From NCBI GenBank assembly GCA_963755715.1, contig CAVWLW010000034.1, forward strand, positions 1 to 64,000: a stretch of DNA of 64,000 bases, given 5' to 3'. The notes under the pieces were generated by a model that did no database searches, was not told where the DNA came from, and saw only the letters and a program-made list of their open reading frames with translations. Source of the stretch: an uncultured delta proteobacterium (lineage in GTDB: Bacteria > Desulfobacterota > Binatia > UBA9968). Position 1 is the stretch's first letter. Each line of letters opens with the position of its first letter. Positions 6,155 to 59,881 of this stretch are shown piece by piece. The translations under genes were made by a program, and so were the position numbers.

Positions 6155-7402
6155 GCTTTCGATGGGTTGCCTTTCGCGCGCCTGACGTTGCTGGTAGAGC
6201 AGCAAGGATGCGGCAAGAGCGCAACACAGACCTGAAATGGCGATTGCCTTCGGCGTGCCGACCAGATGGGCGACGCTGCCGATAAACAGTGTGCCGAACG
6301 ACCACATGCCTTTGTCCATGAAAAACAAGCTGAGCATGCGACCCAACAAATGCGGCGGCGTCTCCATTTGCACGACGGAATTGGCCACCGAGCGAAACGC
6401 GATATTGCTCGCGCCGACGAGAATAAGAAAGAGCATCGACAGCGGTAGAGAACGGCAGAAAGAAAACAAAATCAGCCATAGAGAGAATGAATAGACGCTC
6501 ATCGCGACGAAGTGCGTGCGCCGTCTCAGCCGGCTGAACGACGCGATTCCCAAACCGGCAATCACCGCGCCAATACCCGGCGCGGCCAATAACAAACCGA
6601 ACGTGGACGGGCCGGCGTGAAGCACGTCCGTGGCGAACACCGGCAAGAAACGCGAATAGGGCGTGCCCACTAGCGCAACGCCATAAGTCAGCAAAATGAT
6701 CGCAAAGAGGCGACGCTGACCGCGCAAAAAAAGGTAGCCCTCGCGAACCTCTTCCCAGAAAGGCGCTTCATCGTTGCTTCTTAACTTAACCGAGGGAAAA
6801 ACCATCACGAGCAACGTCACGATGATAGCGAGAAAACTCACGGCGTTGACAAACAAACAGCCGGCCACGCCGATCAGGCTGATCAGCACGCCGCCGAGGG
6901 ATGGCCCGGCGATTTTCGCCAAATTGGCCATCGAGGAATTGAGCGCGATGGCGTTCATGAGATCCTCGCGCGGTACCAGACTATTGATCAACGAGTGGCG
7001 TGCGGTCTGATTGATGGTGTTCACCGTGCCCAGGAAGAGAACCAGGATAATCACATGCCAGAACTGGATGCCCTCGAAATAGACCAACGCCCAGAAAACA
7101 AACGCCTGAAGCATCGCGAGAATCTGCGTCGACATGAGCAGCCGGCGGCGCTCGATGCGGTCGACGATCGCGCCGCCGACCACGCCCAACAGCAGGCGCG
7201 GCAGCGCTTGGGAAAACCCGACCAGGCCGAGCAGAAACGGCGAGCCGGTCATCGTCCAGACCAGCCAGCTTTGCGCCATGGCCTGGATGAAATCGCCGAC
7301 GTGCGAGAGGCTGGTGCCGAAAAAAAGCAGTCGAAAATTACGGTGATGAAGCGACTGGAGCGGATGCGCCAAGTGGATCGACCCTCGTGCGAAGAGGGCC
7401 AT
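6131..7402 (-). CDS. MFS transporter (DUF894/MFS_3-like)
   Basis: About 12 hydrophobic segments, [11 protein letters not shown] motif A; TAATG coupling to glmS. Confidence 0.88.
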
Positions 7403-9231
7403 TATTCGACCGTCACGCTCTTAGCGAGATTGCGCGGCTGATCCACGTCCGTGCCGCGATGCACGGCGATGTAATAGGCCAACAGTTGCAGCGGGATCGT
7501 CATCACAATGGGCGTAAGATAGTGCGAAGCTTTGGGCAACGTCAACACCCGATGCCCGGTGATCTCGCTCACGCTCTTAACATCGTCAGTCAACACCACC
7601 ACTTTGCCGCCGCGTGACTCTACTTCTTTTAGATTGCTCACGGTTTTGTGAAAGTAACGATCGCGCGGCGCTAAAACCAGCACCGGCATTTTCTCGTCGA
7701 TCAAGGCAATCGGGCCGTGTTTCATCTCGCCCGCCGGATAACCTTCGGCGTGAATATAGGAAATCTCTTTTAGCTTGAGCGCGCCTTCCAGGGCGATCGG
7801 ATAATTGATGCCACGCCCGAGATAGAGGAAATCCTGGCTGTGCATGAGATCGCGTGCTAACTCTTTGACTTGATCTTCCAGCTCTAAAGCTTTGTCCACC
7901 CAGCTCGGCAGAAACATCAAATCGCGTAGCAATTTTCGCGCATCCGCCGGCTTGAGCTTGCCGTTAAGCCGGCCCAATGCGACAGCCAAAAGATACAACG
8001 CCGTCAATTGAGTGGTGAAAGCTTTGGTGCTGGCCACGCTGATCTCCGGTCCGGCATGCGTGTATAACACGCCGTGGGATTTTCGCGTGATCGATGAATC
8101 GATCACGTTGCAGATCGAAAGGATCTTGGCCTTCTTGGCGCGCGCTATTTCGGTCGCCGCCAAAGTGTCGGCGGTCTCGCCGGATTGGCTAACCATCAAC
8201 AAAACCGATTTCGGATCCATGAGCGGCGAGCGGTAGCGGAACTCAGAGCCATAGTCGACTTCGGCGGGAATGCCAGCGATCTCTTCGAGCATGAATTTGC
8301 CGACCAAGCAGGCATGCCAGGCGGTGCCGCAGGCGACGAGATGAAATCGTTTGATTTGCTTGGCCATGGTCGCGGTCAGTTTCATATCTTCGAGCGATAC
8401 CTGCCCATCCTTGAGCGAGATGCGGCCGCGAAACGTGTCTGCCAGAGCGCGCGGCTGATCGTGAATCTCTTTGAGCATGAAATGCGCAAAGCCGCCCTTT
8501 TGTGCCGCTACGGCGTCCCAGGTAATTTCTTTTACCGGGCGCTTGATGGTTTTGCCCTTCCCGTCGAGCAAGCGATAAGAGCCGAGCGTGACTTCGCCGA
8601 TTTCGCCGTCTTCGAGAAACGTCACCTTGCGGGTATAGTCGAGTAACGCGGGAATGTCGGAGGCGATAAAAGTCTCGCCCTCGCCCCAGCCAATCACAAT
8701 CGGCGTCGAATTTTTTGCCACGATAAGACGCCGCGGATCGCGCCGGTTAAGAAATAACAAGGCATAGGAGCCGCGAATTTCGCGCAGTGTGCGGCGCACG
8801 GCTTCGAGGAAATCGACGCCGCGCTGGATTTTCTCGGCGACGAGATGAGCGACGATCTCGGTATCGGTCTCGGAGCTGAAATGGGTGCCGCGCTTGGCCA
8901 GTTGCTCTTTGAGCTCGAGATAGTTTTCGATGATGCCGTTGTGCACAACCACGACGTCGCCGGCGCTGTGCGGATGGGCGTTGGTTTCTGACGGTCGGCC
9001 ATGGGTCGCCCAGCGCGTGTGGCCGATGCCAACCGTTCCACTCATCGGCTGGCGGTGCAGCATCGATTCCAGATTGCTCAACTTGCCCTCGCAGCGGCGT
9101 ATCGACACTTGGCCGTCGTGCAATACGGCGATCCCGGCGGAGTCGTAACCGCGGTATTCGAGTTTTCTTAAACTTTCCAGTATCAGCGGCGCTGCTTCTC
9201 GATGCCCGATGTATCCGACGATTCCGCACAT
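7402..9231 (-). CDS. glmS: Glutamine-fructose-6-phosphate transaminase
   Basis: MCGIVG N-terminus, GHTRWATHG, SQSGETAD, PRNLAKSVTVE C-terminus. Confidence 0.98.
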   Translation of the reverse strand: MCGIVGYIGHREAAPLILESLRKLEYRGYDSAGIAVLHDGQVSIRRCEGKLSNLESMLHRQPMSGTVGIGHTRWATHGRPSETNAHPHSAGDVVVVHNGIIENYLELKEQLAKRGTHFSSETDTEIVAHLVAEKIQRGVDFLEAVRRTLREIRGSYALLFLNRRDPRRLIVAKNSTPIVIGWGEGETFIASDIPALLDYTRKVTFLEDGEIGEVTLGSYRLLDGKGKTIKRPVKEITWDAVAAQKGGFAHFMLKEIHDQPRALADTFRGRISLKDGQVSLEDMKLTATMAKQIKRFHLVACGTAWHACLVGKFMLEEIAGIPAEVDYGSEFRYRSPLMDPKSVLLMVSQSGETADTLAATEIARAKKAKILSICNVIDSSITRKSHGVLYTHAGPEISVASTKAFTTQLTALYLLAVALGRLNGKLKPADARKLLRDLMFLPSWVDKALELEDQVKELARDLMHSQDFLYLGRGINYPIALEGALKLKEISYIHAEGYPAGEMKHGPIALIDEKMPVLVLAPRDRYFHKTVSNLKEVESRGGKVVVLTDDVKSVSEITGHRVLTLPKASHYLTPIVMTIPLQLLAYYIAVHRGTDVDQPRNLAKSVTVE

Positions 9232-13924: not shown

Positions 13925-14170
13925 CTACCCTCCACTCACCGGCGGAATAAACACGACCTCGTCTTGCTCGCGCAATACATAATCCAGACCGACATAATTC
14001 TGATTGACGGCGTATAAAAGACGAATGCCGGGCACATCCAGCTTGGGATAATCTTTTTGCAATTGCCGCCAGAGATCGGCGATGGTGCAGCCGTCGGAGA
14101 TTTCTTTCAACACCTCCGCCGCGCCGGCGCGCTCGCGCAAAATGGCGAAGAATTTCACCTTGACTTTCAT
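13925..14170 (-). CDS. moaD: Molybdopterin synthase sulfur carrier
   Basis: 81 aa ubiquitin-like, C-terminal PPVSGG. Confidence 0.95.
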   Translation of the reverse strand: MKVKVKFFAILRERAGAAEVLKEISDGCTIADLWRQLQKDYPKLDVPGIRLLYAVNQNYVGLDYVLREQDEVVFIPPVSGG

Positions 14171-14673
14171 TTGCCCTGGAGCTGCGAAACCATGTGGCGG
14201 ATCTCCGGCAAAATGAGCTTCTCCATCGCCAGCTTCACTGCGCCGCTCGAGCCCGGCACGGAAATGAGCACTTTACCACGCGCCGTTCCCGCCGCCGCCC
14301 GGCTCATGATCGCCGCCGAGCCGATGTCGAGGTAACTCAAGTAACGAAAGATCTCGCCGAAGCCATCGAGTTTCTTTTCCAAAAAACGGCTGACCACTTC
14401 ATAGGTCCCGTCCCGCGGCGCTATTCCGGTACCGCCGTTGACGATCACAGCATCGACATCGCTCCGGCCCAAAGTCTCGTTGAGTAGCTTTTCGATTTCT
14501 GCGGGTTCATCTTTAACGATGCGATAGCCTGTCGCTTCGTGCGCTTCGTCCGCGAGGAATTTCTTGATCGTTTGGCCGCTGGTATCCGTGCTTTCGTCGC
14601 GGGTATCGCTGACGGTAATGACGAAGCAGCGAATGCTTTTCTTGCCCTTCTCTTTATGCTCGTGAACCGACAT
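14167..14673 (-). CDS. moaB: Molybdenum cofactor biosynthesis protein MoaB/MogA
   Basis: TVSDTR, GGTGIAPRD, GFGEIFR, SRA, PGS. Confidence 0.92.
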   Translation of the reverse strand: MSVHEHKEKGKKSIRCFVITVSDTRDESTDTSGQTIKKFLADEAHEATGYRIVKDEPAEIEKLLNETLGRSDVDAVIVNGGTGIAPRDGTYEVVSRFLEKKLDGFGEIFRYLSYLDIGSAAIMSRAAAGTARGKVLISVPGSSGAVKLAMEKLILPEIRHMVSQLQGK

Positions 14674-14787
14674 CGCACCTCTCCCGAAAAATCTCAGCTC
14701 GAATCATACCAACACCGAGCATGAATTCAAAGGTCGGTCAAACCGCTCGAATCGACCGACGAGCCGTTTCGCCGCCGTGCCGGTGAG

Positions 14788-14816
14788 TTGCCCGCGCAGT
14801 TTTGGCCGACTATGAT
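14788..14816 (+). promoter_or_regulatory. Putative sigma70 promoter of hemW (likely leaderless transcript)
   Basis: TTGCCC-N17-TATGAT ending 8 nt before ATG 14825; no SD. Confidence 0.5.
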
Positions 14817-14824
14817 ACCTAGCA

Positions 14825-15982
14825 ATGCTATCGCCCTTCTCGCTATACATCCATATTCCCTACTGCGTCAGCAAATGTCCCTACTGCGACTTCAACTCGC
14901 ACGTCGTGGCGCAGATCCCAGAGCAGAGCTATACTGATGCTTTGCTGCGCGAGCTCGAATTCTTCGGCAGTCGAGACGAATGGCGCGGCCGAACCGTGCA
15001 GAGCATTTTTTTCGGCGGCGGCACGCCATCCACCTTCGAACCACAGAGCATCCGTAAGCTTCTCACGTCGGTCGCCGCAACGTTTCCCCGTCAGGCCGAT
15101 TGCGAAATCACTTTGGAAGCGAATCCGGGCACCGTTGATAGCGAGAAATTTTTTGGCTACCGTGACGCCGGCGTCAATCGCATCAGCGTCGGCGTGCAGT
15201 CGTTTCAGCCCAGGTTGCTCAAGTTTCTCGGCCGCATTCATTCCGCCGACGAAGCGAAGAGAGCGCTCATTACGGTGAAGCAGGCCAATTTCGACAGCTT
15301 TAGCTTCGATTTGATCTACGCCAATCCCGGGCAAACTCTTGCAGAACTGGAAGCAGATCTTGACGCGGCGCTGGAGTTTCAGCCGCCGCATCTATCCGCC
15401 TACAATCTGACCTTCGAAGAGGGCACGCCGTTTCACCACGAGTATCGCTCAGGAAAAATGGGCAATTTAAGCGAAGATGAAGAGATCGCCATGGCGGAGT
15501 CCATCGAAGTGAAGCTCAGCGACGCGGGACTGAAGCGCTACGAGATTTCCAACTACGCCCGGCCCGGGTGGCATTCGCGCCATAATGTGAATTACTGGCG
15601 CGGCGGCGACTATCTTGGCCTCGGCGCCGGCGCGCATAGTTACCGAAGAAATTCCGACGGCGTCTCTGGTCAACGCTGGAGTAATGAAAAGAATCCCGCC
15701 AAGTACATGACGCAAGTGAGCGAAACTCATCTGGCGATCGTCGATCGTGAAGCGATCGAGCGTGAAAAAGCCGCTGCGGAGTTCATGTTCCTCGGCCTAA
15801 GAATGACGGAGGGAATATCAATTGAAAACTTCCACCGAAGGTTTGGCCAACCTCCGATGGAATTCTACCCACAGATCAAGTTATGGATAAACGAAGAATT
15901 ATTGGAGGAGCAAGCGGGATTCCTGCGTTTCACGCCCAAAGGGCTTCTGCTTGCCAATTCGATCTTTGTGCATTTCATGTAG
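14825..15982 (+). CDS. hemW: Radical SAM heme chaperone HemW (HemN-like)
   Basis: YIHIPYCVSKCPYCDF, GGGTPS, YEISN, HNVNYW. Confidence 0.92.
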   Translation: MLSPFSLYIHIPYCVSKCPYCDFNSHVVAQIPEQSYTDALLRELEFFGSRDEWRGRTVQSIFFGGGTPSTFEPQSIRKLLTSVAATFPRQADCEITLEANPGTVDSEKFFGYRDAGVNRISVGVQSFQPRLLKFLGRIHSADEAKRALITVKQANFDSFSFDLIYANPGQTLAELEADLDAALEFQPPHLSAYNLTFEEGTPFHHEYRSGKMGNLSEDEEIAMAESIEVKLSDAGLKRYEISNYARPGWHSRHNVNYWRGGDYLGLGAGAHSYRRNSDGVSGQRWSNEKNPAKYMTQVSETHLAIVDREAIEREKAAAEFMFLGLRMTEGISIENFHRRFGQPPMEFYPQIKLWINEELLEEQAGFLRFTPKGLLLANSIFVHFM

Positions 15983-16052
15983 GTTTAATGGTAAATCAAA
16001 TCGACGGACCTCGGCGTACTCGCAGTTTAGCCGAGAAATCCTGGAGGACCCT

Positions 16053-17228
16053 ATGGCAGACAATAGCCTCGACAAAATTCGCATCGATCATATCGGCAGC
16101 CTGGTTCGTCCGGCAAAATTAAAAGAGGTTTTCGCGCGTTACGACCGCGGGCAAGCGACGCACGAAGAATTGGCAAAAGCGCAAGACGCCGCAATCCGCG
16201 AGGTAATCCAAAAACAAGAAGCCCACGGCTTTCCCGTCGTCACCGATGGCGAGTTTCGCCGCCACAATTTCCAGGAAAGTTTCTCTCAGTGTGTCACCGG
16301 TTTCGACGTGCCAAAGAATATTTCGCTCTACTACGAAAAACGCGATCTCAACGAAACTCCACTCGAACGTGCCGAGCAGAATTTCGACGAAGCCGGCCCG
16401 GCGATCGTCACTCGCCGCGGCACGATCGAACGGCTAAAGCTCATACGCAATTTGCCGTTGACGGAATACCGCTACGCCCAAGGTGTCGCCAAAGTTCCGG
16501 CAAAAGTCACCGTGCTTGGTCCTGATCGAATCGCCCAACGTTTCAAATGGGAAGCGTCGCTGAACGTTTACAAAGGCCTAGATGATTTTGTCGAGCATGT
16601 GGTTCAAATCGAACGCCAGATCATTGGCGAATTAGTAAACGCCGGATGCAAGTACATTCAAATCGACGCGCCGGGTTATACAGCGTATGTCGACAAGATT
16701 TCCTTGGACAGAATGCGCTCCCGTGGTGAGGACCCGGAAAGAAACTTTCAACGTTCCATCGACGCCGACAATGCGCTCATCGAAGGATTCGCCGGCGTCA
16801 CGTTCGGCATCCACATCTGCCGCGGCAACGCCCGCACCATCGACCCGAAAACCGGCAAGCTCGTACCACAGTGGCACCGCGAAGGCTCGTATGATGCCAT
16901 CGCCGAAAAACTTTTTAACACTCTCAACCACCAGCGCATCCTGCTCGAATACGACAGCGACCGCGCCGGCGGCTTCGAGCCCTTACGTCTCGTGCCGAAA
17001 GACAAAATTGTTGTCTTAGGTCTGGTCTCAACAAAGAACTCCGATATGGAAACGGTCGACGATTTGAAACGCCGCATCGATCAGGCGAGCAAGTTTCTAC
17101 CCGCCGATCAACTCAGCCTCAGCCCTCAATGCGGCTTTGGCGGCTTAGATTCTAAGGTTCTCAGCGAAGACGAGATGTGGAAAAAGCTGGATACGATCGT
17201 GGAAACGGCAAAAAAGATTTGGGGTTGA
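16053..17228 (+). CDS. Cobalamin-independent methionine synthase II family (MetE C-terminal-like)
   Basis: GGAGG RBS; DHIGSL, TDGEFRR, HICRGN, LEYD, SPQCGF Zn ligands. Confidence 0.88.
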   Translation: MADNSLDKIRIDHIGSLVRPAKLKEVFARYDRGQATHEELAKAQDAAIREVIQKQEAHGFPVVTDGEFRRHNFQESFSQCVTGFDVPKNISLYYEKRDLNETPLERAEQNFDEAGPAIVTRRGTIERLKLIRNLPLTEYRYAQGVAKVPAKVTVLGPDRIAQRFKWEASLNVYKGLDDFVEHVVQIERQIIGELVNAGCKYIQIDAPGYTAYVDKISLDRMRSRGEDPERNFQRSIDADNALIEGFAGVTFGIHICRGNARTIDPKTGKLVPQWHREGSYDAIAEKLFNTLNHQRILLEYDSDRAGGFEPLRLVPKDKIVVLGLVSTKNSDMETVDDLKRRIDQASKFLPADQLSLSPQCGFGGLDSKVLSEDEMWKKLDTIVETAKKIWG

Positions 17229-17252
17229 TTGCGCTGAACATATTAGCACGCA

Positions 17253-17534
17253 TCAGCTATCCCGCCGCATCTCACTCAGCCACTCTTCATGCACATCCAC
17301 CCAGATCGAATCTTGATCGTGGCAGGTCGAGACTTCGCTCAGATCGAACTTGACCGTGTAGAGCGGCTTATGGATGCCGCGGTGGTCTCGGATGTTTTCC
17401 AGAATACCATGGACTGAGCCGATGACGCCGCGTTTGCCTCTGATATATTTCGGTGTGCGTGGATTGCCGGTGGGATTTTCGACCGCGACGATGACGGCGT
17501 CGCCGATTTTGAATTTGCTGCCGGCGGATTCCAT
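17253..17534 (-). CDS. Stand-alone SH3-like domain of nitrile hydratase beta subunit (thiocyanate hydrolase alpha-like)
   Basis: FKIGDAV, GNPRTPKYIRGKRGVI, PLYTVKF, VDVHEEWL match NHase beta C-terminal domain. Confidence 0.82.
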   Translation of the reverse strand: MESAGSKFKIGDAVIVAVENPTGNPRTPKYIRGKRGVIGSVHGILENIRDHRGIHKPLYTVKFDLSEVSTCHDQDSIWVDVHEEWLSEMRRDS

Positions 17535-17542
17535 CATTCCTC

Positions 17543-18622
17543 TCAATCCGGCCGGACTCTGGGCGCTTCCGCCGTGAATCCGTCTCTCTCGATTTCTCGC
17601 AACTGATTGGGTTCCAGCGCGTAACCTGCGCCGATCAAGCTATCGACGGTGACCAGCTTTGCTAACTCTTCTTCCGCCATCCCTTCCGTGCCGGCAGGGC
17701 GTTGCGGCAGAACAAAATAACGGACGTCGGACGTGCTGTCGTAAACCTGGACTTCCTTACCGGCGGGAATGTTTAACTCAAACATTTCCTTGATGCAGGC
17801 GCGCGGATTCTGCACGATTGTGGTCCGGTAGCTCTCATGCTTGTACCACCATGGCGTGTCACCCAGAATGTCGTAGGGATAGCAGGAGCACAAGGTGCAA
17901 ACGATCACGTTGTGAACTTTGTCGGTGTTCTCAACGACAACCAATTTGCCGACTTTGCCCTGATGCACGCCCATTTCTCTGAGCGCTTCTCTGCCGGTAG
18001 ATAATAGTGCTCGTTTGAATTCCGGATCGGTCCACGCCTTAGCGACAATCACACCGCCTGCCCACGGACGCTTTTCATGAAGCTGTTTCCATCGCTGCTC
18101 CAACTCCGCGCGGGTCGACCAACCCCGCTTGATCAGCGCTTGGACAAAAACCTCGAGCAACTCCTGGTAATCTTTTAAATCCTGCTCCAGATTCACCATG
18201 CGTTCTTCGAGCGTGCCATGATGTTCTTTCTTTTTGATTTTGAAAAAGTCGTCATAGTCGCCGCGCTCTTTGCGATTGTCCTCGGTGACCATGTCCATCG
18301 CCTCGACGGCGCGCGCTGAAACCAGCGCGATGCCTTTCACGTATTCGTCGAGCCACTCTTCCAGATAACGCACGCGGGCTTCGATGTTTTTTCCCTCGGG
18401 CTTTCTTGGCTTGAAGAATTGATTTTTGCGTTTGAGCTCGGCACGGGCCTTAAGCAAATCGGGAAACGTCACGACGTTACGCCGCAGTAAATAAAAAATG
18501 CGCGGCTCGAAACGTTTGGCGCGGTAATACTCCAGATCTTCTTCGACGGCTTTAATGTGCGCTTCGAAATCATGCATGTGCCCTTCGAAAGGCTTGTGCG
18601 AATGTCCATGGTTACCCGACAT
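17543..18622 (-). CDS. Nitrile hydratase alpha/thiocyanate hydrolase gamma-like subunit (Co-type motif) with about 140-aa N-terminal extension
   Basis: GGAGG RBS before ATG 18622; VAKAWTDPEFK, VIVCTLCSCYP, PWWYK..YR, DSTSDVRYFVLPQRPAGTEG. Confidence 0.88.
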   Translation of the reverse strand: MSGNHGHSHKPFEGHMHDFEAHIKAVEEDLEYYRAKRFEPRIFYLLRRNVVTFPDLLKARAELKRKNQFFKPRKPEGKNIEARVRYLEEWLDEYVKGIALVSARAVEAMDMVTEDNRKERGDYDDFFKIKKKEHHGTLEERMVNLEQDLKDYQELLEVFVQALIKRGWSTRAELEQRWKQLHEKRPWAGGVIVAKAWTDPEFKRALLSTGREALREMGVHQGKVGKLVVVENTDKVHNVIVCTLCSCYPYDILGDTPWWYKHESYRTTIVQNPRACIKEMFELNIPAGKEVQVYDSTSDVRYFVLPQRPAGTEGMAEEELAKLVTVDSLIGAGYALEPNQLREIERDGFTAEAPRVRPD

Positions 18623-18654
18623 GAGATCCTCCGATAGTTCGTCCAATGCGCGGA

Positions 18655-20370
18655 TCAATGCGTATCAAATATCTCTTGATACTCTTTCAGCTTAGCTTTG
18701 GTTGCTTCGGTTTCCGCTGCGGTCGGCTTTGCAGCATCGGCAGCCGGCGGCAAGCAACCAAACTTCATCAAGCAAGCCATCAACAATAGCCGCGCTTTCG
18801 TCGCGGTGAGGTTGCTGCCGGCGATCGCCAGTGGATCGCGGGTCGGATCCACGAAGCCGCCGGCATTGCCGCGGCCGACTTTCACCACCGGCATGCCACT
18901 GAACGTGGCGCGCTTGAGCGCCGCGTCGACGGAATTGCTCATGGCGCCAAACGGCGCCGATCCTTCGGCGATGAATCCGGCCAGCGGCGCATCGCGCAGA
19001 TTCTTCTCGATCCGCGCCAGAATATCGACTTCGCTGCTCGCATCACCCGAGGTATCGTCCGACAAGTAGCGGGCATGCTTGACGATCGTGACTTTGGGAA
19101 TTGCCGTCGCCACCAATTCTCCAACATTATTTTTGATCGCAACCGCAATGGTTCCGACCTTTGAATCTTGAACCTTGGAACCGTGAACCTCTCTCGGTAA
19201 CCGGCTGAGATTTACCTGTGAATTATGTGTATGGCGTTTGACCGGCTTGAACGAAAACTGCGGTGCGCCCGGATGACCCAAGCGACCGATGATGCCGCCA
19301 TGACCACCGGTGGCGACGTAGCCGCCAGGCCGCGCGTCGGATTTTTGCACATCCCGGGAAGTAAAAATCTGCTCGTCGAGAATCGCCACAGCGCCGACAC
19401 AATCCCGGCCATTTTCATCCGCCCAGATGCGCGAGGTGATGTAGTTCACCGAGTCGACAATATTACGATCACCGTCGTTAGCGATCGCCCCGTGCGGCCG
19501 CTGCGATGAATTACCGGCGATCGGCACAGCCGTATCGATCAGCAAGTTGAGCCAATAGGTAGTCTCTTCGACGAACGGACTGCCTTCCAGCCAAATCGCG
19601 CCCAAATATTTGCCGCTCGCCAGCGCCTGCTGCACGACATTGGTCACGCGCGCCAGCGCCGCCATCGGCGGCTCCTTGCGCAAATAGCCGGGACGGTAGG
19701 GAAAGAAATCTACGCCGCGAGTTTCCGGCGCGATGTCGCCGCCGCCGATATCGGTGCGCTCGTCAGAGCGCCGGCCCGTTGTATAACCGCCGGACGGCAG
19801 CGCGCGATAAAAGTCGAAATTGGCTTTGCCAGTTAGCAGACATCCCACGCCTTCATCGGAGATCCCCAAGCGATCGATTTCTTCGAAAAGCCGGGAACCA
19901 TCGGGAAAAAACGGCACGCGGCATAGTTCACCCGGTGCATTCTTTTCCGTACCGTCCATTTCCCAAGCCTGCCCGCTAGCCTGCCGAGCCATGTACGGAA
20001 GTGGGTACAATCCGTCTTCCGGTCGCAGCATGATTTCGTAAACAGGTTTATCCGTCAGACTGGTCCGCTCTTTGTGAAAAACCCCGCGGGCGTCGAGATA
20101 GCCGTCGGGCGGTGCGTAAAGCTCGGCGGCATCGCGCTCGAGCGGATGCGCGGAAAACTGTTCAACGTAGACTGTGATCGGCGCTGCCAAGCGCTGCAGG
20201 CGAAGGACATCGAAACGCAACGGCGTGCCGTCCTCATGCGTGCGTGATGGCAAGCCGTATTTTTCGCGCGCCTTGTTGCTCGTAACCAACGGTTCGGTGT
20301 TTTGGATCGTCGCCGTCGGTCCGGAAAATACCGCGATGCGCGGTTTCTCGTTACCTGCTGAAGTCGCCAC
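18655..20370 (-). CDS. Asparaginase/glutaminase-fold protein with divergent active site
   Basis: RIAVFSGPTATIQN, EETTYWLNLL, SQRP..DGDRN, RDVQK, NLTATKARLLLMACL align with type I/II asparaginase motifs. Confidence 0.72.
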   Translation of the reverse strand: MATSAGNEKPRIAVFSGPTATIQNTEPLVTSNKAREKYGLPSRTHEDGTPLRFDVLRLQRLAAPITVYVEQFSAHPLERDAAELYAPPDGYLDARGVFHKERTSLTDKPVYEIMLRPEDGLYPLPYMARQASGQAWEMDGTEKNAPGELCRVPFFPDGSRLFEEIDRLGISDEGVGCLLTGKANFDFYRALPSGGYTTGRRSDERTDIGGGDIAPETRGVDFFPYRPGYLRKEPPMAALARVTNVVQQALASGKYLGAIWLEGSPFVEETTYWLNLLIDTAVPIAGNSSQRPHGAIANDGDRNIVDSVNYITSRIWADENGRDCVGAVAILDEQIFTSRDVQKSDARPGGYVATGGHGGIIGRLGHPGAPQFSFKPVKRHTHNSQVNLSRLPREVHGSKVQDSKVGTIAVAIKNNVGELVATAIPKVTIVKHARYLSDDTSGDASSEVDILARIEKNLRDAPLAGFIAEGSAPFGAMSNSVDAALKRATFSGMPVVKVGRGNAGGFVDPTRDPLAIAGSNLTATKARLLLMACLMKFGCLPPAADAAKPTAAETEATKAKLKEYQEIFDTH

Positions 20371-20405
20371 GAAAATCTCCTTGAGTTTCGGTAAACAGAC
20401 GCAGT

Positions 20406-20428
20406 GCCGGTTTGAGACCCGCCCGTAC
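20406..20428 (-). repeat. Degenerate GTAG-type REP-like element
   Basis: Minus strand GTACGGGCGGGTCTCAAACCGGC; related copy at 52649. Confidence 0.45.
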
Positions 20429-20452
20429 CACCGTTTGCTGAATCGTGAAAAA

Positions 20453-21038
20453 CTATTTCAAGTCAAAAGGAAGCTGCTTTGGACCGTAACCTTGCCAGTA
20501 TTTATTGGTCACCGGATCATAGCGGCCCTGAAGGAAACCGCCGGCTTTTTCCGCGCGGACGATGATCGCCACCGTGCGTTCATCGCCGCTCTCCTCAGCG
20601 TGGATTTCATAGGGCGGCACCAGATCGATCTTCCCTGCGCCGACTTTCACATTGACCGTTTTACGAATTTCCGCACAATCCGGTTTTGATCGGTCATCGA
20701 CACGCTCGTAGCGTTCGATCGATTCGGTCCCGTCGAGCACGCCGTAGAGCGTCCAGTTGTGCGCGTGGTCGTGAATCTGGGTGCGCGTGTGCGGGCGCTT
20801 TGATCAGGCCATTGATAACGAACTTGTAATCGGGGTCTTCATAGAAAAGTAAGTTTTCCGCTCGTTCGCTGCCTTGGGAGCAATCTGGCCAGCTCTTCGA
20901 TTGCGCCCTTATCGATGCATCGGCCAGCAATTCCTGGAGTAGTGGCGACATCCTTTCCCAGCGCTTTGCCGGGTCCGATTCGACTGCAAAAAGCGCTCGT
21001 GCGTCGGCGATAAATTTCTGCACAGCGGACTGAGACAT
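20453..21038 (-). CDS. Cysteine/thiol dioxygenase-like cupin (one +1 frameshift near 20793)
   Basis: Joined frames give ...LFYEDPDYKFVINGLIKAPHTRTQIHDHAHNWTLYGVLDGTE...PPYEIHAE; HDH + H metal triad; GGAGG RBS. Confidence 0.75.
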
Positions 21039-21112
21039 AGAACCCTCCTTGAGGCGAGTGATCGAGCTACCAGATCATTATTATTCCCCCGCAAAGCACG
21101 CCGTCAAGCCGC

Positions 21113-21153
21113 AAAACAAAAAAGGCTTCGGGAGTGTGAGCCCCGAAGCCTTT
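21113..21153 (-). terminator. Rho-independent terminator after ahcY
   Basis: AAAGGCTTCGGG-loop-CCCGAAGCCTTT with A-run on + strand side. Confidence 0.8.
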
Positions 21154-21176
21154 AAGAAGAAAGGAAACTTCTTACC

Positions 21177-22463
<1,287 letters not shown>

Positions 22464-22482
22464 TTAAATTTAAATATTTGTA

Positions 22483-23661
22483 TTAGACCCGACCCGCGGC
22501 CTTTTTGAGATCGGCCGCTCGATCCGTTTTTTCCCAGGTGAACAGGCCCTCTTCCGGGGCACGCCCGAAGTGGCCGTAAGCGGCGGTCGGACGATAGATT
22601 GGACGTTTGAGATCGAGAACTTGAATAATGCCCTTGGGACTGAGATCAAAATGGTCCTGCACGATCTTGGCGATTTTCCCCTCGGAAACAACACCGGTAC
22701 CGAAGGTGTCGACCAACACGGAAACCGGCTGCGCCACGCCGATCACGTATGCGAGTTGCACTTCGCAGCGCTGCGCCAATTCCGCCGCGACGATATTTTT
22801 GGCCACGTAGCGTGCCATGTAGGCCGCGCTGCGATCGACTTTGGAGGGGTCTTTGCCGGAAAATGCGCCGCCGCCGTGGCGTCCCATGCCGCCGTACGTG
22901 TCGACGATGATTTTCCGGCCGGTGAGACCGCAATCGCCCTGCGGCCCACCGACGACGAAGCGGCCCGTCGGATTGACGTGAAACACCGTGTCTTTGTCGA
23001 GATATTCGGCGGGAATCACCGCTTTGATGACGCCGTCGATAATCGTCTCTCTGAGTTTGCTGTATTCGACTTCAGGACTATGTTGTGTGGAGATCACGAC
23101 GTTTTTGACTTTCACCGGCTTGCCGTCGCGATATTCTACGGTCACCTGGGATTTGCTGTCGGGCCGGAGAAAATAAGCTTCGCCGCCCTTGCGAACTTTC
23201 GCGAGGTAGTGCACCAAGCTATGGGCCATTTGAATTGGAAAAGGCATCAGCTCCGGCGTTTCATCGCACGCGTAGCCGAACATCATACCTTGATCGCCGG
23301 CGCCCTGCTCTTTGTGCAAACCTTCGCCTTCAGTCACGCCCTGCGAGATATCGGGCGATTGCTGCTCGATCGCGGTCAAGATGGCGCAAGTATGCCCGTC
23401 GAATCCCATGGCGGAATCGGTGTAACCGATCTCACGCACCACTTCGCGCACGATATCGACGTAACTCACTTTTGCGCTGCTAGTAATCTCGCCGGCAACG
23501 ACTACCATGCCGGTCTTGGCGAGACTTTCGCAGGCTACTCGGCTGTTCGGATCTCCGGCCAAATGGGCGTCCAAGATCGCATCCGAAACCTGGTCGCAGA
23601 GTTTATCAGGATGACCTTCGGAAACCGATTCAGACGTAAATAGAAAATCTTTACCAGCCAT
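22483..23661 (-). CDS. metK: S-adenosylmethionine synthetase
   Basis: [28 protein letters not shown]. Confidence 0.98.
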
Positions 23662-23737
23662 GAGACGACCTCCAGCAGCCCGACAAATTTGAAGTTTAAT
23701 TTATTTGGTATAACGAATACGAGGGGGCGATTCAACC

Positions 23738-24013
23738 TCACTCGTTTTCGTTAAAGCGGTTCTCGATCAGCCTTTCGATCGCCTTGACGGCGCGCTCCGC
23801 GTCGTCTCCGTTGGCCTCTACCTGGATCTTACTGCCCTGGGTCGCAGCCAGCGTGAGCACCCCCATGATACTGCGTCCGTCGGTCGTTTGGCCGTCCTTG
23901 GAAAAATTCACCTGAGCCGAGAACTTGTTGACCGTTTGCACGAGCAATGCAGCCGCGCGCGCGTGCAACCCCAGCTTGTTTCGTATTTCGATCTTCTTGA
24001 CGATTCTGCTCAT
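23738..24013 (-). CDS. ptsH: HPr phosphocarrier protein
   Basis: GLHARAA (His15), GRSIMG (Ser46). Confidence 0.93.
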   Translation of the reverse strand: MSRIVKKIEIRNKLGLHARAAALLVQTVNKFSAQVNFSKDGQTTDGRSIMGVLTLAATQGSKIQVEANGDDAERAVKAIERLIENRFNENE

Positions 24014-24018
24014 GGATA

Positions 24019-24885
24019 TCACTTGTCGATATCACGGTGCTTGACATGAATGCGCAAGTGGCCGCCACCAAATCTCTGCTGTAATTCTTGAACCAGGACA
24101 ACGGAACGATGCCGGCCGCCGGTGCAACCGAGCGCCAGGGTGAGACTACTCTTTCCCTCGCGCTCGTAAAGCGGCAGGGTAAACTCGAGCAAGCCATACA
24201 GACGATCGAGAAAGTCCCGCGTTTCCTGATTGCCCAGAACATAATCTCTGACTTCGAGATCGAGACCGGTCTTGGCGCGTAGCTCGTTGACAAAATACGG
24301 GTTGGGTAAAAAGCGCACGTCGAAGATCATATCGGTGTCGTGGGGAATGCCATACTTGTAACCGAACGACGTGAAGAACAGCGCCATGTGGCGCGCCTGC
24401 GGCGCGTCGCAAAACTGCTGCTCCATCTCCCGTTTGAGCTGATGCACGTTGAAATCACTGGTGTCGATCACTCTATCGGCCAAGGCGCGGATCGGTTCCA
24501 GCGCCTTCCTTTCACGGGAAATGCCGTCTTGGATCGAATCCTGGCCCGCCAGCGGATGGGGCCGACGCGTCTCGCTAAAGCGCCGCAAGAGCACTTCATC
24601 GGACGCGTCAAAAAACAAAATCTGCGCGTAATGGCCCGCGGCCCGAACGTCGCTCAGCACCTGCGGCAAGGCCTGTAAGAATTGGCTGCCGCGCAGATCG
24701 ACGCCGAGCGCGATGCGCCTGATTTCTTCTTGGTAGCCTTGCGCCAAGTCAATGAACTTGGGGATCAACAGCGCGGGAATGTTGTCGACGCAAAAAAAAC
24801 CGTTATCTTCTAGAGCGCGAATGGCAAAGCTTTTCCCAGACCCAGAAAGGCCGGTGATAATGATGATATCCAAGCCGTCGGCCAT
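24019..24885 (-). CDS. rapZ: RNase adapter RapZ (P-loop)
   Basis: GLSGSGKS, SFGYKYG, DVRFLPNP, GCTGGRHRSV. Confidence 0.95.
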   Translation of the reverse strand: MADGLDIIIITGLSGSGKSFAIRALEDNGFFCVDNIPALLIPKFIDLAQGYQEEIRRIALGVDLRGSQFLQALPQVLSDVRAAGHYAQILFFDASDEVLLRRFSETRRPHPLAGQDSIQDGISRERKALEPIRALADRVIDTSDFNVHQLKREMEQQFCDAPQARHMALFFTSFGYKYGIPHDTDMIFDVRFLPNPYFVNELRAKTGLDLEVRDYVLGNQETRDFLDRLYGLLEFTLPLYEREGKSSLTLALGCTGGRHRSVVLVQELQQRFGGGHLRIHVKHRDIDK

Positions 24886-24891
24886 GGCGGA

Positions 24892-25353
24892 TCAAAACTT
24901 ATCGTCCTCTTCGGAAATAATCTTGTAAAGTTCCTGGCTCGATTGTCCGGCCATGAGCCGGCGGCGGAATTCTTCGTCTTTGAGCAATCGCGATATCCGA
25001 GCCAACGCTTTCAGGTGATCGGCCGCGGCGTTTTCGGGCGCGATCAGCACGAAAAACAAGTGCGTCGGCGCGCCATCTAAAGACGCGAAATCGACGCCTT
25101 CGGGACTGCGCGCAAAAACACCCAAGACTCGTTCAACGCCGGGCAGCTTGCCGTGGGGAATAGCGACGCCTTCGCCGATCGCGGTGGTGCTGATCTTTTC
25201 TCGATCGAGGAGCACGTCGAGCACGGATTTCTTTTTCAAAGGCGGATGATGGGCCGCCAACCAATCGGCCATTTCTTCGAGAGCAGCATTCTTTTCCCTG
25301 CTGCCGAGCGCGGGAATGATGGTCTGTACGTTAAGAAAGTCGGTGATCTTCAC
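24892..25353 (-). CDS. ptsN: PTS EIIA-Ntr
   Basis: REKISTTAIGEGVAIPHGK; rpoN operon context. Confidence 0.9.
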   Translation of the reverse strand: MKITDFLNVQTIIPALGSREKNAALEEMADWLAAHHPPLKKKSVLDVLLDREKISTTAIGEGVAIPHGKLPGVERVLGVFARSPEGVDFASLDGAPTHLFFVLIAPENAAADHLKALARISRLLKDEEFRRRLMAGQSSQELYKIISEEDDKF

Positions 25354-25691: not shown

Positions 25692-27171
25692 TTATTTGCG
25701 CAAAAACGGCTGTCGGCGCTTGGAAGAAGGAAGGATACCCATCGCTTCGCGATATTTGGCCACGGTGCGCCGGGCGATTTCAATCGAGTCGTTGGATAAC
25801 GCCGCCGCGATATGCTGATCGCTGTACGGTTTGCGCGGGTCTTCCGCGGCGATGATGCCGCGGATTTTCTCTTTGACGCTTTCGCTCGCCACATCTTCGC
25901 CGTTGCCGCTGTGCAGTCCACTCTGGAAAAAGAACTTGAGCTCGAAAAGGCCTTGCGGCGTGTGCACATATTTGTTGGCCGTCGCGCGGCTCACGGTGGA
26001 TTCATGCATGTCGATATCTTCGGCGACGTCGCGCAGCACCATGGGCTTGAGGTTGCTCACGCCATGGTCGAGAAACTCCTGTTGAAATTTGAAAATGCTC
26101 TGCGTGACCCGAAACAGAGTCTGCTGGCGCTGTTGGATGCTCTTGATCAACCAGTGGGCGGCGCGCACCTTTTCTTGCAGATACTGGCGCGCTTGTTCTT
26201 CCGCCGCGCCCTCTTGTCCGGCGAGGCGGCGATAGAGTGAATTGACGCGCAGGCGCGGCACGCCGTCGTCGTTCAAAAAAATCACATATTCGTCGCCGAC
26301 TTTCTCGACGAAAACATCCGGCAAGACCGTCCTGACCTCGTCTTGCTCGAAACCGCGCGATGGCTTGGGTTCGAGAGTCGCGATGAGATGGGCCGCTTCG
26401 GCAATCTCATCGATGGTCACGCCCAAGTCCTTGGCAAGCTTTTCGTAGCGTTTGGATTCGAGAAAGTTCAAATAACTGGCGATAATTTTTGCCGCCAGGC
26501 TGTCGCTCAGCTGCAGGTTCTCGAGCTGAATCAACAGACACTCACGCAGATCCTGCGCGGCGACACCGACCGGATCGAAAAAGTGAATGCGCCGGAGCAC
26601 CGCTTCGACTTCCTCCGCGCTGCTTCCCGTGGCGGTACAAATCTCCTCGCGGCTGAGAACCAGATAGCCATTCTGGTCTAGATTTTGAATCACGTACGAG
26701 CCGATGGTCGGTCTCGCGCTCAGTGATCTTCGAAAGCCGAAGCTGCCAAATCAAATGGTCTTCCAAGGTTGTCTTTTTCGTCAGGCTGTTTTCCCAGGAG
26801 GGCGGTGAGTCGCCGTCGTCCGAGGTTGCTTCAGCGGTAAGGGAGCCATGGATCGAATTCGAGTGGGTATCGAGGTATTCCTGCCAATCCAATGTGCCGA
26901 TCTTGTCGACGGCGGACAGCTCCCGATTGAGTACCAGCTCCGAGCCGTTCTCGGGAACGCTCGCCTGGGTTTCGGATCGCGGCTGTTCACCGCTGGCCTC
27001 AGCCTCCTCGGTAGGGCCTTCTTCGAGAGCGGGATTTTCCTGGAGCTCCTTGGTCACCATCTCTTCCAGTTCTACCCGCGATAGTTGCAGTAATTTGATC
27101 GCCTGCTGCAACTGCGGCGTCATCACCAGTTGCTGAGTGAGCTTTTGAACCTGTCGAATCTCAAGAGCCAT
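25692..27171 (-). CDS. rpoN: RNA polymerase sigma-54 factor (one +1 frameshift near 26710)
   Basis: N-term LVMTPQLQQAIKLLQL in one frame; HESTVSRA and RpoN box ARRTVAKYRE in the other. Confidence 0.95.
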
Positions 27172-58440: not shown

Positions 58441-59881
58441 TCATATCCACAACCCCGCCGGGATTTGTGCCGGCTGCAGACGTACTTCGCCGCAGCTCGC
58501 TGGTGTCGGAAAGAGTTTCGCCGGATTGAACCTGTTGTCTGGGTCGAAAACGCGCCGCACTCGCGCCATCGCTTCCAAATCGGCTTCGTTGAAAAGCAAG
58601 CCGATATAAGCCTTCTTCTCCAAGCCGACGCCGTGCTCGCCGGTGATGCTGCCGCCGAGCTCGATACAGGCGCGCAGCGTGGCGGCGCCGGCTTCGATCA
58701 CGCGATCGAGCTCACCGGGCGCGCGCATGTCGAACAAAATGTTCGGATGCAGATTGCCATCGCCGGCGTGAAACACATTGGCGATGCGGAGATTAAATTC
58801 TTTGCTGATCGCGGCGATGCGGCGCATCATCTCCGGCAGCTTGCTGCGCGGCACGACACCGTCTTGGACGTAATAATTCGGCGCCAGCGTGCCCATGGCG
58901 CCAAAAGCGCCTTTGCGGCCTTTCCATAATCGTTGCCGCTCGCTTTCATCGGCGGCGAGCTTCACTTCGCGCGCGCCGTTGCGTTGGCAGATCTCGCGCG
59001 CGAGTCGACGCCGAGCGGTCGGTGTGCTCCGTGAGGCCTTCAATTTCGACGATCAGCACCGCTTCCGCGTCGCGCGGAAAGCCCACCGGCGCGCCGCGCT
59101 CGATGGCCTCGATCGTTGTGCGATCCATCATTTCCAACGCTGCCGGAATGATTCCGGCCGCGGTAATGTCGACAACGGTCTGAGTCGCGTTATCCATCTC
59201 GTCAAAAATGGCTAGTAACGTGCGCACCGACTCGCGCGTCTGCATCAGCCTCACCGCTACTTTGGTGACGATTCCCATGGTGCCTTCCGAGCCGACGAAC
59301 AGGCCGCAGAGATCATAGCCCGGCATGTCCGGAACTTCGCCGCCAAGCCATACGACTGCGCCGTCGTCCAATACGACTTCGACGCCAAGCACGTGGTTGG
59401 TCGTGACGCCGTAGGCGAGCGTATGCGGGCCGCCGGAATTGTTCGCCACGTTGCCGCCGATCGAGCAAGCGGCTTGACTGCTCGGGTCGGGCGCATAGAA
59501 AAGGCCGTCTTTGGCCACCGCCTTGGTGACATCGAGCGTTGATCACGCCCGGGCTCGACGATGGCGATGCGATTTTCGAGATCGATTTTCAAGATGCGAT
59601 TCAACCGCGCTAGTGAGAGAACGATTCCGCCCTCCGCCGGCACCGCGCCGCCGGCTAGGCCGGTCCCCGAACCCCGCGGCACAATCGGTACGCCGGCCTG
59701 TTTCGCTGCTTTCACCACGGCGGCGACTTCTTCAACGTTGCTGGGCAGCACAACGATCTCCGGCATGACTTGAAAGATCGAGCCGTCCTGTTCGTAAACG
59801 ACAACGTCTTCTTTCTCGATCAGAACATAGCGCTCGCCGACGATAGCTGCGCAGATCGCGAATGAGAGTTTCTCGATTCAT
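58441..59881 (-). CDS. glcD: Glycolate oxidase FAD-linked subunit GlcD (about four +1 frameshifts near 59848, 59549, 59537, 59005)
   Basis: PRGSGTGLAGG, PDPSS, GGNVANNSGG, HAGDGNLH, GEHGVG spread over successive frames. Confidence 0.88.

Follow-up and report, generated by a model that had tools for sequence, protein, structure and literature searches.

The window analyzed here is a 64-kb stretch (positions 1 to 64,000) of contig CAVWLW010000034.1 from the assembly GCA_963755715.1 of an uncultured delta proteobacterium of the Binatia (genome G000), and all coordinates are positions within it. On the minus strand, between positions 17253 and 21038, the open reading frame (ORF) listing contains four genes in shared orientation, which code for a cupin, an asparaginase-like protein (gene asnl), a long alpha subunit of the nitrile hydratase (NHase) family (gene nhA), and a stand-alone SH3 domain that corresponds to the C-terminal part of an NHase beta subunit (gene sh3). 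The unit follows the intrinsic terminator of ahcY (21121..21153, minus strand), a 13-pair stem with a T run whose hairpin is kept in most aligned relatives. The gaps are 82 nt between the cupin gene and asnl, 32 nt between asnl and nhA, and 5 nt, or a 4-nt overlap, between nhA and sh3, so that the layout given in a preliminary description of this DNA, four co-oriented genes with short gaps behind the ahcY terminator, was correct. The unit has a putative sigma-70-type promoter (21080..21107, minus strand) with TTGACG, a 16-nt spacer and AATAAT (10/12 matches), of which the blocks CTTGACG and TAATA are unchanged in 9/9 aligned loci. With a ratio of nonsynonymous to synonymous substitution rates (dN/dS) of 0.035-0.11 across all four genes, both halves of the cupin gene included, the four-gene unit is beyond chance. 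We propose that the genes form one operon, transcribed apart from ahcY from its own conserved promoter, as one element of a reading that is set out below and that we give, taken as a whole, an even chance of being right.

The gene nhA (17543..18622, minus strand) encodes a protein of 359 residues with the sequence VCTLCSC. Its ORF covers 17543-18658 (371 aa), and judged from the sequence the start is most likely the ATG at 18622, which lies behind a GGAGG and agrees with the alpha lengths of relatives (357-359 aa). The Pfam family NHase_alpha (PF02979) matches residues 167-344 of the 371-aa ORF with an E-value of 1e-63, reaching from profile position 6 to 183 of 184, and residues ~133-359 of the protein represent an entire canonical alpha subunit. 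In NHases the metal claw reads C-(T/S)-L-C-S-C, and the threonine marks the cobalt type. Across 31 sequences down to 40% identity, the claw positions C242, C245, S246 and C247 never vary, and T243 and L244 hardly do. An AlphaFold2 (AF2) model of the protein reached a mean predicted local distance difference test score (pLDDT) of 79.4, and a Foldseek search with this model gave 39 matches with E<=0.001, of which the 38 listed are NHase alpha chains or gamma chains of thiocyanate hydrolase (SCNase). The identity of the alpha domain to Co- and Fe-type NHase alphas and to SCNase gamma is 36-47% in these structural alignments.

What sets this protein apart is an N-terminal helical extension of ~130-165 residues. 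In the AF2 model four long helices precede the alpha domain, with extension helices modeled at residues 19-47, 53-62 and 80-109, and a loop at residues 106-137 that is poorly modeled. The extension carries the motif HMHDxEAH and the invariant residues R117-x-E119-x-G121-x-Y123-D124-x-x-F127, which form an RxExGxYDxxF loop. No Pfam family matches the extension at E<=0.1, including NHase_beta_N (PF21006), which as a positive control scores 1.3e-18 on the separate beta-N gene of the Burkholderiales locus L075. A profile-profile comparison of the long-alpha family with canonical beta subunits using hhalign yielded a probability of 0.4%, and an ESM Atlas search with residues 1-140 gave no match. 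Some relatives carry the label PF27793 in the protein database.

The small gene sh3 (17253..17546, minus strand) encodes 97 residues when read from a TTG, or 94 residues from the ATG at 17537. It matches NHase_beta_C (PF02211) with an E-value of 6.8e-14 and scores 42.2 with the NHase beta model TIGR03888, below the cut-off of 152.2. The N-terminal helical domain PF21006 is absent from the 97-aa protein and finds no match anywhere in the operon (E<=0.1). The stretch NPRTPxY is invariant and aligns with the GHTRxxRY stretch of canonical beta subunits, and an equally invariant DHRG is the SH3 protein's own. In a complex model of the alpha and SH3 proteins the interface score ipSAE was 0.80 (0.79-0.81 in the individual runs) as compared to 0.00 for the best of three controls; the model passes a mark that is reached by 116/157 solved complexes and 2/215 mismatched pairs. 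The contacts agreed by at least 73% between runs, and the partner pLDDT was at least 80. The interface involves R27-P29, Y31, H43 and D51 of the SH3 protein and residues 224-228, 243-244, 270-275 and 290-300 of the alpha, whereby the conserved arginine of NPRTP is placed against the claw and the extension lies outside the confident interface. As NHase complexes have already been solved, the passing model is a sign of likeness and not a proof, and it may simply reflect the resemblance to solved NHases. Domains, conservation and the complex model nevertheless bear out the initial assignment of a rebuilt Co-type NHase consisting of a CTLCSC alpha and a stand-alone beta-C domain, and we are rather confident that the core is a two-subunit enzyme of the NHase family.

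A gene sh3 lies downstream of the long alpha in 47/47 genome loci with at least 330 nt after the alpha, and it also follows the alpha in those distant contigs that have room for it (L100, L101, L102, L103, L104, L106, L107, L109, L129 and L132). The universal core of the system is thus the long alpha together with the SH3 protein.

Among characterized enzymes, the Co-type NHases NthA/NthB, with structures from Pseudonocardia thermophila (1ire) and Pseudomonas putida (3qxe), are alike in the alpha domain (42-47% identity, Foldseek E ~1e-14, TM-score to the target 0.78-0.80) and in the VCTLCSC claw, and the beta-C SH3 is modeled here with its conserved arginine beside that claw. Unlike these enzymes, the alpha adds the extension with its own invariant motifs, the beta N-domain is missing both as a gene and as detectable homology, the operon has no P14K-type activator, although one exists at a canonical NHase locus of the same genome (C24), and the proteins stay under the TIGR01323 and TIGR03888 cut-offs. 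Indeed, of the window ORFs scanned (69 greedy ORFs of at least 90 aa) none encodes an NHase_beta_N domain, an activator or a signature amidase, just as the preliminary description had stated for the full beta subunit, the activator and the amidase. Thiocyanate hydrolase (2dd4), the ToyJKL type and locus L075 resemble the system in that the beta-C SH3 is likewise a separate small protein beside the alpha, and SCNase gamma is a structural match of the long alpha. These split-beta three-subunit systems, however, retain the beta N-half as a third gene (at L075 6282-6593, PF21006 1.3e-18), whereas none is found here, and their gene order is SH3 before alpha, whereas here the alpha comes first. In comparison to ScnABC, a third subunit gene is lacking and the SCNase gamma cut-off (TIGR03887) is missed; from ToyJKL, which has two beta-derived genes instead of one, the system is set apart by gene content alone. 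To our knowledge every characterized NHase form needs a beta N-domain, be it fused or as a separate chain. Full-text literature searches found neither the long-alpha/mini-beta build nor the four-gene set described, and the build is a so far undescribed variant within the NHase family. The accessible part of a paper on metagenome-assembled genomes (MAGs) of ammonia-oxidizing archaea lists the presence of nthA only (PMC12625717). Locus L075 itself (6282-7549, plus strand) belongs to a Burkholderiales MAG and encodes a beta-N protein of 104 aa, an SH3 protein of 100 aa and an alpha whose N-terminus is rich in His.

Further variants of the long alpha were seen in related genomes. Loci L084, L085 and L086 (genomes G279, G277 and G275) hold a paralogous long-alpha subfamily that lacks the HMHD motif and carries a His-rich insert (HNHEHDH) between extension helices 2 and 3; these paralogues, with 46-49% identity, stand with their own SH3 gene alone. 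At L088 (8153-8488, minus strand, contig C7 of G279) there is a 112-aa remnant of an alpha extension directly followed by an SH3 gene, an arrangement that resembles a third, degenerate copy of the module.

The gene asnl (18655..20370, minus strand; GTG start behind AAGGAG) encodes a divergent asparaginase-fold protein of 571 aa. The N-terminal Pfam domain Asparaginase matches with 3.5e-9 over residues 239-346 only (profile positions 62-163), Asparaginase_C with 1.1e-6, and the TIGR00520 score of 57.8 bits is far below the cut-off of 314.3. ESM Atlas returned only asparaginase-labelled clusters of 558-571 aa. The functions of the active-site residues, namely the threonine of TGGT, the Thr-Asp pair of HGTDT and the lysine of RDVxK, are those that we assume to carry over from E. 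coli AnsB (asparaginase II). The lysine of RDVxK is retained, and an invariant SGPTAT (residues 16-21) lies near the place of TGGT, although MAFFT left it unaligned with the canonical motif. HGTDT aligns to EGSPF, in which the threonine is replaced by serine and the aspartate by proline and which is invariant in 18 sequences, so that the Asp partner of the catalytic Thr and Lys, if that role is assigned correctly, is gone. The substrate-binding stretch Ser-Gln of the canonical enzyme reads Ser-Ala, subject to the uncertain alignment of the N-terminal region. An insertion of ~155 aa follows the first 80 residues, and there are further inserts. As compared to type II L-asparaginases (1agx, EcAII), both Pfam domains and the SQRP...DG and RDVxK stretches are shared and a Thr-containing SGPT lies at the start of the first strand, whereas the length (571 aa versus ~330), the insertion, the EGSPF motif and the lack of a signal peptide on inspection set the protein apart. 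From its sequence we regard the asnl protein as no canonical member of the asparaginase family. Ordinary asparaginases are present elsewhere on genome-related contigs. A 314-aa asparaginase at L091 (1156-2100, minus strand, genome G293) has HGTFT in place of HGTDT and has the SQRxH...NDGDRN and RPGG stretches in common with the 571-aa protein; because this shorter relative has HGTFT, the loss of the aspartate would mark a wider subgroup, of which it appears to be a short member.

The cupin gene (20453..21038, minus strand) would encode ~194 aa with three histidine ligands if intact. The protein matches no Pfam family, including CDO_I, and one source names its family no more precisely than 'predicted metal-dependent enzyme (double-stranded beta helix superfamily)'. 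The nearest solved relative is mercaptosuccinate dioxygenase (MSDO; 8vni, E 6.2e-9), followed by MDO and CDO-type proteins, and the three metal-binding histidines (IHDH...EIH) align with 8vni and 6xb9. With the thiol dioxygenases MSDO (8vni), MDO (4wvz) and the CDO-type 6xb9 it also shares the size of a single cupin of ~195 aa. The part of a preprint available to us describes the 3-His iron site and a (Ser/His)-His-Tyr outer-sphere motif as conserved in CDO, MDO and MSDO (bioRxiv 10.64898/2026.05.19.726356). At the positions of this motif the cupin has neither His nor Tyr but the sequence TVAIIVRAEKAGG; opposite SISIHVY of 6xb9 it reads TVAIIVR, which replaces the outer-sphere His and Tyr by aliphatic residues and an arginine, and none of 12 relatives has a His or Tyr within residues 155-170. 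The position of the substrate carboxylate-binding arginine (Arg66 in MSDO, Arg60 in CDO) is an asparagine, with an arginine three residues upstream where the alignment is gapped. The preliminary description of a thiol-dioxygenase-like cupin thus holds for the 3-His site and the relationship to 8vni and fails for the outer-sphere pair, and the sequence comparison indicates a distant relative rather than a canonical thiol dioxygenase. The closest homologues in sister genera and in G294 (L095, L096, L097 and L098) recur beside an Amidohydro_2 gene (PF04909), in two cases together with a transporter of the major facilitator superfamily (MFS) as well and with a canonical asparaginase at a distance of 5-7 kb; this neighborhood may be a separate small catabolic module.

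In the window the cupin is split over two frames (20694-21038 with 114 aa and 20453-20740 with 95 aa) by one extra base near 20796, which had been overlooked when the gene was taken as intact. The gene is a single frame of ~194 aa in 12/12 translated relatives, which read ...GLIKAP(K/H)TRTQIHDHAHNW... in this region, and the two halves show dN/dS values of 0.05 and 0.035 against L005, as expected under purifying selection. In two DNA runs that belong to separate studies, a base is missing at 20796 from the only contig that covers the site (depth 37.2 of 37.2 in one run, 11 of 11 in the other); either run may be the window's own source sample. Two other genes of the window are split as well: rpoN into overlapping frames at 25695-26693 (CBD and DBD) and 26545-27171 (AID), and a GlcD-like FAD-oxidase gene into 58444-59043 and 58949-59518, all on the minus strand; these two splits are probably indel errors of the assembly. 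Because both metagenome contigs lack the base, the relatives are intact and other window genes are split, the frameshift in the cupin gene most likely stems from an indel introduced by assembly or sequencing. Alternatively it may be a very recent strain-specific mutation.

The linkage of all four genes was followed in 51 genome loci with the long form. The gene asnl is found upstream of the long alpha in 43/47 loci, the cupin gene in 37/41 and ahcY in 23/33. In two genomes of a sister genus the order is metK-ahcY-asnl-nhA-sh3-cupin, with the cupin gene moved to the end and with identities of 55-57% for the alpha, 71-72% for the asnl protein and 70% for the cupin, and as the same four genes are kept despite the changed order, selection on the gene set can be argued. 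Contigs of two soil and rhizosphere RNA libraries cover parts of all four genes (X15, n=5; X16, n=10), and one X16 contig (20235-20508) bridges the spacer between the cupin gene and asnl with more than 31 nt on either side. Co-transcription, on which the preliminary description had made its proposal depend, is thereby hinted at and not more, since contigs are no proof of one continuous transcript and RNA libraries may contain DNA. The stretches left uncovered by RNA contigs in X15 and X16 are uninformative.

We propose that the system is an atypical Co-type NHase with a lineage-specific accessory set for amide hydrolysis and oxygenation, a package whose chances we consider evenly balanced. The core enzyme would bind Co(III) through the VCTLCSC claw, with the SH3 protein, which corresponds to the C-terminal half of an ordinary beta subunit, as its only beta-like partner. 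Because a beta N-terminal domain is missing, the substrate pocket would have to be closed by the alpha extension, perhaps by its invariant RxExGxYDxxF loop. Going by its family membership, the enzyme most likely converts a small molecule to an amide by hydrating its C-N triple bond. The genes asnl and cupin would then be two accessories that were recruited in this lineage. The asnl protein, as a cytoplasmic hydrolase that has kept a candidate Thr nucleophile and the Lys and has lost the Asp, probably hydrolyses the amide product, an amide probably other than L-asparagine, to the acid and ammonia, and the cupin as a 3-His oxygenase would oxygenate the same skeleton at a step that precedes or follows hydration.

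Several observations weigh against this proposal. The linkage counts come mostly from species of one genus and are non-independent. In 4/47 loci (L037, L047, L049 and L051) the alpha and SH3 genes stand without asnl and cupin, genome G294 has the pair and no asnl orthologue at all, the metagenome contig L118 (6336-8316) has cupin-nhA-sh3 without asnl, and at L112 (2-2294) asnl is reduced to fragments while cupin, alpha and SH3 remain. In the flanks of the distant loci L100-L107, L109, L126, L129 and L132 neither asnl nor cupin was found, and the neighbors of these loci have nothing in common. The sister-genus genomes G275, G277 and G279 carry the paralogous pair (46-49%) alone and the other components at separate loci: their asnl orthologues (61-64%) adjoin a dienelactone hydrolase or a Haem_oxygenas_2/TENA (iron redox) protein, and their closest cupins (58-61%) adjoin Amidohydro_2 and MFS genes far from the pair. 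The joint occurrence of the four families, by which the initial proposal was to be checked, therefore holds in the window's genus and, reordered, in a sister genus, and breaks down in the distant pairs and in these three genomes; asnl and cupin are lineage-specific, non-obligatory companions of the core pair. At the protein level, the alpha stays below the NCBIfam equivalog cut-off for NHase alphas (TIGR01323, 211.7 versus 249.85 bits) and below that for SCNase gamma (TIGR03887, 148.7 versus 291.45 bits). The asnl protein may not be a hydrolase, since a catalytic-triad residue is missing, and its AF2 model from an 18-row alignment (pLDDT 44.6) was too poor for a fold search.

These same observations could mean that the alpha and SH3 proteins work on their own as an autonomous module, and that cupin and asnl merely share the promoter and serve one or several other pathways. 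The solitary pairs in all distant loci and in the 4/47 close loci, the components that lie scattered beside other partners in G275, G277 and G279, and the loss or decay of asnl in L118 and L112 would all fit, but the four genes stay together through a change of order between two genera, they share one conserved promoter and short gaps, and the accessory genes are constrained as strongly as the alpha, which is why we consider a purely autonomous module unlikely. Along the lines suggested initially, the genes could instead form a pathway from beta-cyanoalanine, or another amino-nitrile, via asparagine to aspartate, in which cysteine or some other thiol would be the substrate of the cupin. An NHase-type gene does adjoin an asparaginase-fold gene, and soil and rhizosphere as source would suit this route. 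The conversion of 3-cyanoalanine to Asn and on to Asp and NH4+ is, as far as the accessible part of the source goes, established for NIT4 plus asparaginase (PMC8567248). Nevertheless, EGSPF in place of HGTDT makes this a poor fit, as does Ser-Ala in place of Ser-Gln, as far as the assumed roles and the uncertain N-terminal alignment allow; the TIGR00520 score (57.8 versus 314.3), the ordinary asparaginases elsewhere on genome-related contigs and the cupin without an SHY/HHY pair point in the same direction, and we think that this pathway is very unlikely to be realized here.

The core enzyme might also do something other than nitrile hydration and use its rebuilt pocket for the hydrolysis of a different linear C-N or C-S compound, be it thiocyanate-like, cyanamide, cyanate or an isonitrile. 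In known enzymes the beta N-domain lines the nitrile pocket, and here this domain is wholly missing; the alpha misses the NHase equivalog cut-off, and two canonical NHases already exist in the same genome. On the other hand, the NHase alpha model outscores the SCNase gamma model (211.7 versus 148.7 bits) and genes for sulfur oxidation or carbonyl sulfide are absent from the window ORFs scanned, so that we regard such a function as quite unlikely. The least probable explanation concerns the cupin, which could be a maturation factor and, as a thiol dioxygenase directed at a protein, generate the Cys-sulfinate of the claw. Its nearest solved relatives are thiol dioxygenases and the 3-His site is kept, while the SHY/HHY pair of the enzymes acting on small molecules is absent; it stays beside nhA-sh3 where asnl is lost (L118, L112), it moved with the cluster in the sister genus, and the operon has no activator gene. 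However, the 4/47 close loci and all distant loci have the pair without a neighboring cupin, the closest sister-genus cupins pair with Amidohydro_2 and MFS genes, and the NHases known to us oxidize their own cysteines without a helper. We see only a remote chance that the NHase superfamily has a new branch here, in which an extension-built pocket is combined with a cupin that is dedicated, as a protein thiol dioxygenase, to installing the Cys-sulfinate of the claw.

Nitrile hydratases are industrial catalysts and textbook cases of post-translationally oxidized Cys ligands. If true, a dedicated cupin would give the NHase cofactor its first known step of enzymatic maturation. A natural form without the beta N-domain would show that the active site can be closed in a second way, and its range of substrates may be new. 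In addition, the operon contains an asparaginase-fold protein whose triad is altered and a relative of the thiol dioxygenases that lacks their usual second-sphere motif.

Strong conservation is seen for the long form (identities of 76-92% between species of the genus, dN/dS ~0.05), which is also common in soil metagenomes, and in soil and rhizosphere runs from many studies the stretch was found at ~0.7 of the sampled words. Of the records that contain long alphas with 76-92% identity, most bear the names of Candidatus Binatia or Deltaproteobacteria MAGs. In the window's genus, 24/24 sampled genomes have a match, a count in which the unpublished G255 is represented by its table row only; in a sister family the long forms have 48-57% identity, and in another family of the order only canonical alphas were found. 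Five full-length distant long forms occur among 50%-identity representatives, with Verrucomicrobiae and Nitrososphaerales MAG proteins as source names. Metagenome contigs hold 40-56% identical long forms, one of them bearing an archaeal TFIIB gene, and some long-alpha contigs are attributed to ammonia-oxidizing archaea. A phylum-wide sample around G000 had the long form in 1/251 genomes, namely G000 alone, because its own order was skipped in that sample, and a search in 401 genomes centered on G293 sampled the same phylum and added nothing. In the Actinomycetota, hinted at by ESM Atlas, 0/351 sampled genomes had a match at E<=1e-25, a count without positive control that is uninformative on absence. 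The window assembly itself (7.4 Mb in 76 contigs) encodes two further canonical NHases: contig C51 (L001) has a beta-alpha arrangement and contig C24 (L003) an alpha-beta-activator arrangement with a P14K-like activator that matches NHase_beta_N, the alpha of C24 being split and frameshifted into the beta frame.

As to the surroundings of the four-gene unit, an Rfam search over positions 14000-25000 at E<=1 found no riboswitch or other family beyond two chance-level matches. The unit lies behind metK (22483-23661, minus strand) and ahcY (21177..22445, minus strand), the latter assigned by a family match and flanking as a separate transcription unit. On the other side, a MetE-like short methionine synthase gene (15951..17228, plus strand), recognized by Pfam and NCBIfam matches, converges on sh3. 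In the ORF listing it begins at a TTG overlapping hemW; the family models match only from about residue 40, and the true start probably lies some 30-40 codons further in.

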